64,000 bases of DNA, taken from the IMG/VR virus record IMGVR_UViG_3300030329_005244; one strand, written 5' to 3'. Origin of the DNA: a virus. This document shows positions 16,882 to 36,004 of this stretch, piece after piece (position 1 is the first letter of the stretch; every line of letters begins with the position of its first letter). Under the pieces are notes generated by a model. That model did no database searches, was not told the DNA's origin, and saw only the letters and a program-made list of their open reading frames with translations. The position numbers were made by a program, and so were the translations under genes.

Positions 16882-17307
16882 CTACTTCATTGCTTGCCAG
16901 ATATTACCGGCATTTCCAAAAATTGAACTGATGTCTACACCAGCGTCGTTAGGGTTGCCTAAATCCACTGCGCCCGCTTTGGGCGTGGACGCCTCATGTT
17001 GTGACATGGGCGTAGTACCCTCAAACAAATCAATACCATTGTAGGCGTCCGATCCAATGGAATCCATCAAACTTTTACGATGTTCTTGCAACTTGCGCCT
17101 AGTGTCTTGTGCTTGCCGTTTCATTTGTTGCGGCTCTTCGCGCACAACAGGGGGTTGTGGTGCTCGTGTTTCGACCACCAAATTTTGTTGCATTCCCTTA
17201 ACAACCTCAGAGACAACGTTAGAAAGAAGCCCCTCTTCTAAAAGGACTTCTTGGATGCACTCTTTAACGACTGGCTTGATTAAAGCCTTTAATTGATTCT
17301 TTTTCAT
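16882..17307 (-). CDS. Hypothetical protein with a leader related to the MK..LxxIIxEE family
   Basis: N-terminus MKKNQLKALIKPVVKECIQEVLLEE; located in the head operon. Confidence 0.7.
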   Translation of the reverse strand: MKKNQLKALIKPVVKECIQEVLLEEGLLSNVVSEVVKGMQQNLVVETRAPQPPVVREEPQQMKRQAQDTRRKLQEHRKSLMDSIGSDAYNGIDLFEGTTPMSQHEASTPKAGAVDLGNPNDAGVDISSIFGNAGNIWQAMK

Positions 17308-18017
17308 GTATCCTCGGGGGGTGTGGGGTGTTTAAATTTGTTCAAACGGGATTGTAATTGAGATTCCAAATCATCTAAATCTTGAGGAGCGGGGAGTTGC
17401 AAAGGGGGAAGCTGCGTGGGCTCCAAAGTCACATCTAAATAATCCTGTATTTGTTTTTCATTACGATTCCCAAAAACTTTATATAAAGTATCGGCAGTCA
17501 CAAGAGCCATCATTGCAAAAAGACGAGCCGTCCATCCTGCCACATAGCCTTTGGGATCCGCCAGCAATTGGAATCCCCAATGAGTCATCTTCTTTTTTAA
17601 TGCAAAGAGAATAAATCTGACTGATGCTTTAGAGAGCTTGGAAGAGTTCAATTCTTCCAGAAAGTCTTTTTCGGCTTTTGCCCAACCCTTTTCCATCTCT
17701 TCCATGGCAACAACTGTACGACGCAGCTTGTCTGCCAAACCAGGACGCTTCTCCTTGAGAAGTGCCATCTTCGAAGCATCGCGAGATGTTTCTTTAACCA
17801 CATGCCACCAAGTAGGCCATGAAATGCCATAACCCACTACCTCAGTTAATTCCTCAGTGGGCTCAATTTCCAAAACCTGAATCAATTCAGGGAGGTCTTC
17901 TCGCAGGGTTTCCTCGGCTGCAACGATATCAGGGTCGGTGCCATCTTCGGTGAGGTATTTCCGCCAATTCTCCATAAGGAGGCTCTGCTTGGGAAAACTC
18001 GACCATGACTTGTTCAT
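17304..18017 (-). CDS. Hypothetical protein, putative internal head protein (WSSF…ENWRKYL leader)
   Basis: Shares its N-terminal ~25 aa with 18014..18655; ATGA coupling. Confidence 0.65.
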   Translation of the reverse strand: MNKSWSSFPKQSLLMENWRKYLTEDGTDPDIVAAEETLREDLPELIQVLEIEPTEELTEVVGYGISWPTWWHVVKETSRDASKMALLKEKRPGLADKLRRTVVAMEEMEKGWAKAEKDFLEELNSSKLSKASVRFILFALKKKMTHWGFQLLADPKGYVAGWTARLFAMMALVTADTLYKVFGNRNEKQIQDYLDVTLEPTQLPPLQLPAPQDLDDLESQLQSRLNKFKHPTPPEDT

Positions 18018-18655
18018 TGTGCAGCCTGCTGTCCACTGGGAAGGTTTACTTTTCCAAAGCCAACCTTTTCTAGAGCATCGCGTACAAGCTTTTCACCCTT
18101 GTCGCCTTTGGCTAAAATCGTTTGAATAGCTTTTTGCGTCAACGGTCCTGTCTTGCCAAAATCGAAGCGCAACACTTTCCGCTGTTGTTGTTGTTGTTGT
18201 TGTTGTTGTTGTTGTTGTGCCGGTTGCTGTGCTTGTTGTGCCGGTTGCTGTGCTTGTTGTGCCGGGGCTCTGCGCCTTCGTTGCCTTCGACGCCGACGAC
18301 TGCGACGCCGGCCCTTGGGGTTCGCCTCATCGACAGTCCCCTCTCCTTCGGCTGGTGCATCCACCACTTCATAACCAGCTTCTTTCATATACTGAGTTAA
18401 TTCCTGCGCAAGCTCACCTTTTTCTCTCTGTCCAAAGCCCGCAGCGCCTGCCAGAGTGGTTGCCAAGGTAACGATACCCAGCTTGGGATAGGTGCCAGGA
18501 GCAGCCTGTTTAAACAAGTTCGCAAATGCACCAAAAGCTTTCTTAATCATATCCCAAAGCCCTTCATCTAAAAGCTCTGGTTCTTCCTTTAAATATCTGC
18601 GCCAATTTTCGGTGATGAGGCACTGCTCCTCAAAGCTGGACCATCCTTTACTCAT
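18014..18655 (-). CDS. Hypothetical protein with Arg-rich and polyQ tracts, putative internal head protein
   Basis: MSKGWSSF…ENWRRYLKEE leader, then KGRRRSRRRRRQRRRR followed by PAQQAQQ repeats and Q12. Confidence 0.65.
   Translation of the reverse strand: MSKGWSSFEEQCLITENWRRYLKEEPELLDEGLWDMIKKAFGAFANLFKQAAPGTYPKLGIVTLATTLAGAAGFGQREKGELAQELTQYMKEAGYEVVDAPAEGEGTVDEANPKGRRRSRRRRRQRRRRAPAQQAQQPAQQAQQPAQQQQQQQQQQQQRKVLRFDFGKTGPLTQKAIQTILAKGDKGEKLVRDALEKVGFGKVNLPSGQQAAQ
18182..18265. repeat. (CAA)n microsatellite plus 21-nt tandem repeat
   Basis: About 11 perfect TTG units on +, adjoining ttgttgtgccggttgctgtgc repeated about 2.5 times. Confidence 0.95.
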
Positions 18656-34754: not shown

Positions 34755-34756
34755 TA

Positions 34757-36004
34757 CTAGTCCTTCTTGCCTTTGCCCTTTGGGTAGACAAGACTGTCGC
34801 TGCTATTAACATTTGCTGCGAACGCTGCTTGTCGCTTGCGCTTCGTGGAGGAGCCACTTGCTGCCTTATCAACGCACGCCTGGGTCACATCTCCACCGCA
34901 ATACTTCGTGAATTCGCCTTCCGTGCCCTTCTCTTCAATATCTTCGGCTGCGTCTTGAGCCCAGTTCTCGTCTTTCTCTTCTTTCATGTGAACCCCCCTC
35001 ATTTGAAGTGCATCGCCCAACTCTCGCTGATACTGCTCTCCTTCGGGAGTGGTAGGCTGCCACTTTTCATAAACTGCCTCGGCGGCGCGCAACTTGCGCT
35101 TTGCTATTTCGGCTCCAAAATCGTGCATTCCAACATCGCCATGCCCTTCGGCAAGAGCCTTTTCAATTTCCTCAACCAAAATGGCTTTCAATTGTTTTCG
35201 GGTAATCTTCATTTTGTTTTCCTTTAATTCTTTTCCCCCCTTATGATAAGCGGGCATAGATTCTAATTCTTCGGCTTGAACTTTTAATGCTTTTTGTAGC
35301 AACGTGGGATCAAAGGCGGCGCACTTTCGGGCCTGGGCGCTTCCAAGCCCTCCACCTCCCATAATTTTATTATAAAGCCTAACTCTATCATATAGATGCT
35401 CAGACCCATAGCTGGTTTGTCCAATTTTGCCGCCTCGGCGCATTCTAAAAGATACGCAATCCATAGACATGTCAGTATAGCGACCGTTTTTTTCATCATA
35501 CTTTCCACATCTTTTTCCAAGTTCTCCCGACCAATCGTGAGCGGATCTATCGCTATCTAAATCCGAATAAATGTCTTTGTGTTCGCGATCTATTATTTTA
35601 TCCAAATGTCCTTGCAAGCTCATCCCACACGAAAGCATATCTTTATATTTACCACGATCCAATGTGTCAGAGGGGTCCATTCCCAACGCAATCATTGGCT
35701 CTGCTATTGCAGCGCGGCCTCGTTCAGTTTCTATTTGTTTTATAAAATTTGTACTAATTTTAAGACGTTGGCGCGAACTTTCGGCGTCTCGCCAATCATA
35801 TTGAGTTTTGGAAGAGCCTGGTCCTGCGCCCAAGCCTCCTTCCAGCCTTTCTGCTTTTCGGGCTATAGCGGCATATCGTGAATGGCTGGGGCCAATATCA
35901 AGGATTTCATAATCCTCGTCAGTCATTTCGTTGTAATTTTCGTAGAGAGCAGCACTAATCTCTTCTTTAAGAATAGCCTTCAACTGCGACTTTGAAATCT
36001 TCAT
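34757..36004 (-). CDS. Hypothetical multi-module protein with two MK-leader motifs (36004 and 35212)
   Basis: MKISKSQLKAILKEEI at 36004 (GAGG RBS); internal MKITRKQLKAILVEEI at 35212 (AAGGA RBS). Confidence 0.7.
   Translation of the reverse strand: MKISKSQLKAILKEEISAALYENYNEMTDEDYEILDIGPSHSRYAAIARKAERLEGGLGAGPGSSKTQYDWRDAESSRQRLKISTNFIKQIETERGRAAIAEPMIALGMDPSDTLDRGKYKDMLSCGMSLQGHLDKIIDREHKDIYSDLDSDRSAHDWSGELGKRCGKYDEKNGRYTDMSMDCVSFRMRRGGKIGQTSYGSEHLYDRVRLYNKIMGGGGLGSAQARKCAAFDPTLLQKALKVQAEELESMPAYHKGGKELKENKMKITRKQLKAILVEEIEKALAEGHGDVGMHDFGAEIAKRKLRAAEAVYEKWQPTTPEGEQYQRELGDALQMRGVHMKEEKDENWAQDAAEDIEEKGTEGEFTKYCGGDVTQACVDKAASGSSTKRKRQAAFAANVNSSDSLVYPKGKGKKD

Follow-up and report, generated by a model that had tools for sequence, protein, structure and literature searches.

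An N-terminal leader shared by unrelated proteins of an uncultured T4-like phage and its relatives: a candidate prohead-targeting propeptide

Introduction

The internal proteins of T-even phages are diverse except for a capsid-targeting sequence (CTS) that is conserved and takes them into the scaffolding core (PMC3012670). The T4 protease gp21 cuts after L/I-x-E, whereby Asp at P1 blocks processing, and the CTS propeptides are 10–19 residues long. Alt carries propeptides at both the N- and the C-terminus, and the N-terminus of gp21 itself may be a targeting propeptide (PMC9026906). In the T4 record the CTS MKTYQEFIAE was confirmed twice, in IPII and IPIII. Here we describe a leader of about 16 residues that heads otherwise unrelated proteins in a 64,000-nt stretch of DNA, virus record IMGVR_UViG_3300030329_005244, from an uncultured T4-like myovirus. 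This whole stretch is called the window, all positions are counted on it, and leader-bearing proteins are referred to as tagged.

Like the leader, the gp21-removed CTS of IPII and IPIII, present also on IPI and Alt, is N-terminal, starts with M-K and ends in I-x-E. Both tags stay conserved on unrelated bodies that vary from one related phage to the next, and both phages combine a protease of the gp21 family (S77) with an L-x-E/A maturation site in the capsid protein. In contrast to the T4 CTS with its 10 residues, the leader comprises 14–16 residues, is Lys-rich and contains two consecutive invariant Glu. It is carried by 5–12 genes per genome and by about 9,500 protein clusters, compared to 3–4 proteins in T4, is often repeated 2–4 times per protein, and its genes are scattered in variable slots or arranged in tandem arrays.

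A second point of comparison is provided by T4 gp67 and gp68, encoded in the order portal-67-68-21-22-23. Like the tagged proteins they are small, acidic, encoded just upstream of the protease and equipped with hydrophobic-x-E sites; gp67, which includes the stretch IDLIKEEK, has a helix and then a poly-acidic tail. The tagged proteins, however, show no detectable homology to gp67 or gp68 (PHROG, Pfam) and are not core components of the genome, because the slot upstream of the protease is empty in over half of the relatives (occupied in 33 of 75 loci, in 22 by a tagged gene). In phiKZ, 201phi2-1 and SPN3US, many head-internal proteins are cut after Glu by a gp21-related protease (gp175/gp245), with propeptides that contain redundant sites (PMC9026906). 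These systems differ from the leader in that no single common leader has been described, the motif is S/A-x-E and the proteins are mostly large. A literature search on the leader motif strings found no paper, and searches for work linking the CTS to marine or metagenomic T4-like phages turned up no description of this leader.

Results

Leader copies in the window

The leader pattern M-K-[ILV]-[ST]-[KR]-x-x-L-x-x-I-[IL]-x-E-E was searched with a six-frame regular expression and a degenerate DNA pattern, and the chance level was derived from 100 dinucleotide-preserving shuffles. Both searches agree on six copies, all located on the minus strand, which is the coding strand of the genes in the leader-bearing region; the shuffles predict 0.00. 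Five copies open ORFs at an ATG (19934, 25630, 29001, 30235 and 36004), and the sixth is situated in frame at 35212, corresponding to residue 265 of the 415-aa ORF that starts at 36004. The leader proteins and two proteins with leader-like stretches are:

19260..19934, minus strand: leader protein of 224 aa, MKVSKKRLIEIITEEI..., occupying the variable slot that immediately precedes the prohead protease; no Pfam or PHROG match
25355..25630, minus strand: leader protein of 91 aa, MKLSKARLKQIIKEEI..., immediately preceding the large terminase
28183..29001, minus strand: leader protein of 272 aa, MKLTKAALKKIIKEEY..., with a further, degenerate copy inside the protein at residue 125 (nt 28629)
29978..30235, minus strand: strongly acidic leader protein of 85 aa, MKISKERLRQIIMEEL..., with a 4-nt overlap between its start and the stop of SbcCD
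34757..36004, minus strand: double-leader protein of 415 aa, with leaders at residues 1 and 265, between primase and SbcCD
33510..34754, minus strand: protein of 414 aa with a weak internal leader-like stretch, LTEAALLQIIRETVEE, at residues ~51–66 (~34610), under the reporting threshold of the leader hidden Markov model (HMM)
16882..17307, minus strand: small conserved head-module protein of 141 aa with the leader-like N-terminus MKKNQLKALIKP...VLLEEG

The initial annotation of the window had listed the five N-terminal leaders, further copies at 35212, 28629 and ~34610, and a variant at 17307. The six strong copies are real, including the full match at 35212, but the other three are degenerate variants only. 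The copy at 28629 (MKLTKQSLQHLIRQVLKE) scores 6.4 bits and is devoid of E14-E15, and the variant at 17307 (MKKNQLKALIKPVVKECIQEVLLEEG) belongs to a gene shared by most relatives (52 distinct orthologues) that adjoins the protease region in 63 of 80 loci. The description of the bodies as otherwise unrelated also holds: the bodies of the window leader proteins display no mutual similarity, with only the nested sequences starting at 36004 and 35212 clustering, and searches of these proteins against Pfam and PHROG gave no match above threshold.

At the DNA level, pairwise identity of the copies amounts to 0.61, 0.76 and 0.49 at the first, second and third codon position, and the same codon is used in only 67 of 126 same-residue codon pairs. 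The DNA upstream of the copies is unconserved except for a Shine-Dalgarno-like run. Given this synonymous variation among the copies and the lack of upstream conservation, selection acts on the peptide, in agreement with the earlier proposal. Alternatively, what is conserved could be a signal in the mRNA or for translation initiation, in the form of a coding region that is A-rich at its 5' end and perhaps tied to the bS21 protein that the phage encodes (16633-16875), and the leader DNA is indeed A-rich (ATGAAAATYACNAAA...). We give this explanation next to no credence: synonymous sites are free to vary, residues are kept through codon 16, some copies are C-terminal, and it is largely refuted by internal copies lacking Met (72 of 175, see below).

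Conserved leader and exchanged bodies in relatives

At least 595 IMG/VR contigs encode a protease 69–74% identical to that of the window, and 80 of these (929 kb) were fetched as relatives. A relaxed regular expression found 63 matches, all on the coding strand and directly after Met (57) or a GTG start (6). The leader HMM yielded 95 N-terminal copies, representing 88 distinct proteins; BLAST sorts their bodies into 48 clusters, 32 with a single member. This HMM scan had been suggested as a check, and it reveals a leader that is kept while the bodies vary. Even within one orthologous family the leader is invariant, at a mean column identity of 43% over the whole alignment.

The gene order of the relatives is conserved and reads ...g26555, g26169, TerL, portal, g21745, g20931, g20420, protease, core17307, bS21 ... 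scaffold, capsid protein. Between TerL and portal, portal and g21745, g21745 and g20931, and core17307 and bS21, an extra gene is found in 0 of 60–69 loci. The slot between g20420 and the protease, in contrast, is the one occupied in 33 of 75 loci, and tagged genes are situated between g26169 and TerL in 14 of 30 loci and between g26555 and g26169 in 9 of 22. A complete relative, G001 (203 kb, with terminal repeats), is syntenic with the window and carries other bodies at the same slots. All five of its copies lie at most 17 kb upstream of the protease, and none is present in the remaining ~185 kb. As in the window, a double-leader protein is encoded between primase and SbcCD, but most of its body differs. 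Such an exchange of bodies at syntenic slots under a retained leader corresponds to the interchangeable set that the initial annotation had envisaged. The leader is therefore a genuine, peptide-selected element that resides at true N-termini, on many unrelated bodies in variable slots of the head region.

Beyond these relatives, the strict DNA pattern matched at least 120 IMG/VR stretches, and copies were counted in 118 further loci. Here 240 of 241 HMM copies begin at a start codon, and the proteins typically comprise 65–170 aa. A profile of the first 30 residues of leader proteins, searched against 1.84 billion cluster representatives, retrieved 9,483 protein clusters at E <= 0.001 and 105 at E <= 1e-10. 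The top matches mostly contain 2–4 leaders per protein, and ten of these top matches all derive from metagenomes, one of them from Global Ocean Sampling data. Among the leader-bearing contigs, a 17-kb contig with three tandem leader genes is labelled as belonging to a giant-virus metagenome-assembled genome (IMGVR_UViG_GVMAG-S-1030632-100_000001) and is probably a mis-binned phage fragment.

Cultured phages are all distant: the best match to the protease is that of Microcystis phage Mel-JY01 (46% identity). A megablast search with 18 kb of the window against cultured phages gave no match, and neither did a tblastn search with a 25-aa leader, for which the query was too short or masked.

Candidate cleavage motif and prohead protease

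The enzyme proposed to remove the leader is encoded in the window next to the 224-aa leader protein:

18648..19253, minus strand: prohead protease of the gp21 type, Peptidase_S77 (PF03420, E 5.5e-32; phrog_207, E 3.6e-55)

Of 19 long leader-bearing contigs, 15 encode Peptidase_S77, among them each of the three with a completeness of at least 90%; where it is missing, in the remaining four, completeness is 19–62%. The leader itself has I-[IL]-x-E at its end, which is the motif of T4 gp21, as the initial annotation had pointed out. Position 12 is I or L, and position 14 is Glu in 604 of 606 distinct copies and never Asp, a result that is partly circular, since the seeds required Glu, although matches found by the HMM only could vary. 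Position 15 is Glu in 588 of the 606 copies and Asp in one, compared to an E:D ratio of 1.2:1 in the bodies. The leader thus co-occurs with an S77 protease and ends in a T4-type cleavage motif with an invariant Glu.

An enzyme other than a protease could also read the leader, namely a modifying enzyme for which it would be the recognition sequence, as in RiPP-type systems. Many unrelated proteins under one leader would be in line with leader-guided maturation of this kind. However, no Radical_SAM match (PF04055) is present in the near-complete genomes G001 (5 copies) and G017 (12 copies), and in other genomes such matches are located far from the tagged genes. The leader lacks the Cys, Ser or Thr pattern typical of such substrates, no candidate modifying enzyme was found among the scanned window genes adjoining tagged genes, and the S77 protease is the only enzyme shown to co-occur across genomes. 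We therefore regard a modification leader as very improbable.

Internal copies provide additional information on the motif. Because 72 of 175 lack the starting Met, they represent true internal repeats and not start sites. In 108 of the 175, a hydrophobic-x-E ending is positioned 1–5 residues before the copy, compared to a mean of 28.9 and a maximum of 43 for random positions in the same proteins. In the window, the copy at 35212 is preceded by L-K-E-N-K and that at 28629 by V-K-E-N-K-P. The common DNA upstream of these two internal ATGs therefore encodes a conserved peptide junction, and it could also serve as a ribosome-binding site.

A second leader, unrelated to the 16-residue leader, is found on both sides of the protease region. 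Its long form heads two window proteins:

17304..18655, minus strand: two proteins (237 and 213 aa) with the second leader WSSF-x6-L-[IL]-x-ENWR-x-[FY]L-x-E, in the variable slot just after the protease

In the relatives, a short form, MSEMKLIMENW-x2-[FY]L-x-E, occurs between g20931 and g20420, so that in two slots flanking the protease region the second leader heads variable proteins of 69–732 aa. Despite being unrelated to the 16-residue leader, both forms end in [FY]-L-x-E. The core L-I-x-E-N-W resembles QLLIETW at the N-terminus of T4 gp21.

Architecture and composition of the tagged proteins

The information content of the alignment falls sharply after leader residue 16. In an AlphaFold2 model of the 91-aa protein (25355..25630; mean pLDDT 64.5), residues 5–21 form a helix, which is followed by a disordered linker of low confidence (residues 22–34) and a small helical body. 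The leader is Lys-rich and highly charged, while the bodies, with a median of ~98 aa after the leader, have a pI below 5.5 in 52 of 86 cases. Disorder-promoting residues are frequent in the bodies (0.64 versus 0.54), hydrophobic residues are scarce, and several tagged proteins end in acidic tails. No credible family, and no match to gp67 or gp68, was obtained for 81 tagged proteins of the relatives in Pfam and PHROG. The ESM Atlas model of the 415-aa protein has a mean pLDDT of 0.49, and its look-alikes in the Atlas are small viral hypothetical proteins only (score 0.82, below the meaningful level).

In composition, the bodies resemble the T4 core proteins gp67 and gp68 as closely as the T4 internal proteins. 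Targeting and cleavage might take place as in T4, with the tagged proteins acting as accessory parts of the prohead core like gp67 and gp68, which would help to build or size the core and would then be degraded and expelled before DNA packaging. The small, acidic, disorder-rich and hydrophobic-poor bodies, the low pLDDT of the 415-aa model and the lack of a known domain in 110 of 112 bodies scanned are in line with such a role, as is one main slot, which immediately precedes the protease and matches the place of genes 67 and 68 in T4. The helix and poly-acidic tail of gp67, with its IDLIKEEK, find a counterpart in the acidic tails of several tagged proteins. On the other hand, the slots are empty in many relatives, so the tagged proteins are dispensable, and the fast turnover of bodies, at 5–12 per genome, is unusual for assembly factors. 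In addition, the bodies show no enrichment of [IL]-x-E sites such as is seen in T4 gp22, and two tagged proteins, one with pentapeptide repeats and one of the GNAT type, look like effectors. Overall, we consider a role as core components unlikely, if well worth keeping in mind.

Head genes, putative scaffold and promoter-like motifs

The genes surrounding the leader proteins were identified as follows, and the positions that the initial annotation had assigned to protease, terminase, SbcCD and primase are correct:

7545..9374, minus strand: gp23-type major capsid protein, the N-terminal region of which aligns with T4 gp23
9398..10627, minus strand: putative scaffold of 409 aa, immediately upstream of the major capsid gene, assigned by position and composition
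16633-16875, minus strand: ribosomal protein bS21, within the head-gene block and at the same position in the relatives and in Microcystis phage Mel-JY01
21729-23750, minus strand: gp20-like portal
23759-25348, minus strand: large terminase
30232-33339, minus strand: fused SbcCD
36016-36948, minus strand: primase
36979-37518, minus strand: RuvC

In the alignment of the capsid proteins, L-R-E60/A of the window is placed onto L-T-E65/A, the maturation cut of T4 gp23. The assignment of the putative scaffold also draws on its conservation across the relatives; a BLASTP comparison with T4 gp22 gave no significant similarity. It carries an acidic leader-like segment, VTDEQLLRMLAEE, at residues ~139–151 (10172-10210, minus strand). 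The pattern of this segment, h-[ST]-x3-L-x2-h-L-x-E-E (h, hydrophobic), recurs in most of 17 aligned homologues within a variable acidic region. The segment resembles an acidic counterpart of the Lys-rich leader, and a pairing of the two would be speculation. A structure prediction that paired the putative scaffold with residues 1–40 of the aligned leaders gave no answer (score 0.00, no controls) and weighs neither way.

A TATTTAT-type motif (CTATTTAT[AT]) is present on the minus strand at 4644, 10665, 11861, 14374, 16629, 36049 and 41054, and precedes several structural genes as well as the double-leader gene by 25–76 nt. At the latter, a promoter-like CTATTTATT is located 44 nt upstream, and TATTTAT is found there in the window and in G001 alike. 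Upstream of orthologues, TATTTAT recurs for the gene at 16113-16592 (44 of 47), the putative scaffold (19 of 26) and the gene at 10690-11835 (13 of 23). The motif, which reads as the complement of TATAAATA of T4, is probably the late promoter of this lineage. For the tagged genes this idea holds only in part, as TATTTAT precedes 0 of 79 tagged genes near the protease in the relatives; these genes appear to be co-transcribed with the terminase-to-protease genes.

Three further features of the window were recorded. Three paralogues in tandem (204, 201 and 175 aa; 5112-6972, minus strand), encoded downstream of the capsid gene, have the common N-terminus MGTKRVGLARTQAL[IV]E[NY]LKR. The tail or fibre region contains an ORF of 3,450 aa (50082-60434, minus strand). 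A 526-aa protein (26557-28137, minus strand) has a signal of the lipoprotein type (LFLLGC) and a weak match to a hydrolase, phrog_18474.

Discussion

The combined evidence leans towards the leader being a T4-CTS-like prohead-targeting propeptide that is cut after I-x-E14. In such a system, the leader would form a short charged helix on a flexible linker and bring small proteins, unrelated in every other respect, into the scaffolding core while the head assembles. The gp21-type serine protease would cut after I12-x13-E14, and the body, freed inside the capsid, would then exit with the DNA or be degraded. Proteins with several leaders would be polyproteins, cut on both sides of each internal leader. 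Core binding, cleavage, packaging and delivery of the tagged proteins are steps that we infer from sequence.

Several observations weigh against this interpretation. Apart from M-K and I-x-E, leader and T4 CTS are dissimilar in sequence, and the leader HMM misses IPII and IPIII; moreover, the leader is absent in eight cultured T4-like phages (T4, Syn9, S-PM2, P-SSM2, HTVC008M, Mel-JY01, immuto and Vibrio R11Z). With respect to cleavage, to which the partial circularity of the Glu count also pertains, acidic helical proteins often contain [IL]-x-E tripeptides, which show no enrichment in the bodies over core proteins. P1' would be Glu, a residue that this protease would have to accept. Some copies are C-terminal, and with these a cut behind E14 would not free the protein from most of the helix. 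As to the amphipathic helix that the initial annotation had assumed, the AlphaFold2 model bears out the helix but the amphipathic character is not supported, since the helical hydrophobic moment of the leaders is not above that of shuffled leaders. Furthermore, the cargo had been thought to consist of effectors, for which the bodies give little support. A known domain was found in only two of the 112 scanned, a GNAT acetyltransferase and a pentapeptide-repeat protein of 207 aa on another IMG/VR contig (L143:3609-4229, minus strand; PF00805, E 3.9e-32), and the remainder are mostly ~100 aa long, acidic and disorder-prone. Finally, more distant relatives with jumbo genomes (up to 289 kb, 12 copies) have their tagged genes arranged in tandem 50–120 kb away from the protease. 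Proximity to head genes is thus a property of this lineage and not of the tag.

These arrays, together with the C-terminal copies, would also fit a leader that is no capsid signal at all but the conserved helix by which a rapidly evolving family of small helical proteins docks or oligomerises, binding a host factor or a phage complex, with a coincidental h-x-E ending. A highly charged helix in front of short, helical or disordered bodies would suit this function, and three of the five tagged genes of the window adjoin or sit between genes for replication or recombination (primase, SbcCD) and unannotated genes and not head genes. However, such a helix leaves unexplained why position 14 is Glu and never Asp, why hydrophobic-x-E is found just before internal copies, and why conservation ends sharply at residue 16 and gives way to a flexible linker. 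Nor does it account for the unrelated second leader near the protease, which likewise ends in L-x-E, or for the co-occurrence with S77 proteases. We judge it rather improbable, a shade more so than a role of the tagged proteins in the core.

Returning to the targeting propeptide, a more far-reaching version may be put forward tentatively, and we hold it to be possible though doubtful. The leader could be an excisable address label, flanked by protease sites and used by several marine T4-like lineages on thousands of rapidly evolving orphan proteins, some of them polyproteins of 2–5 modules, in order to load the capsid with an interchangeable arsenal for delivery with the DNA. Docking might perhaps occur by the Lys-rich face of the leader onto the acidic helix of the scaffold.

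If the targeting reading is correct, capsid loading by a cleavable tag would be widespread in abundant uncultured T4-like phages instead of being a T-even curiosity with three or four cargoes, and multi-leader polyproteins cut on both sides of the tag would represent a new organisation of cargo. About 9,500 orphan protein clusters would be assigned a location, the virion interior, and a timing, delivery with the DNA, which would make them candidates for functions in early host take-over or anti-defence. Moreover, a simple sequence rule would become available for spotting virion-internal proteins in metagenomes. Should the tagged proteins instead be sacrificial components of the core, the tag would still define how accessory proteins enter the T4-type scaffolding core.

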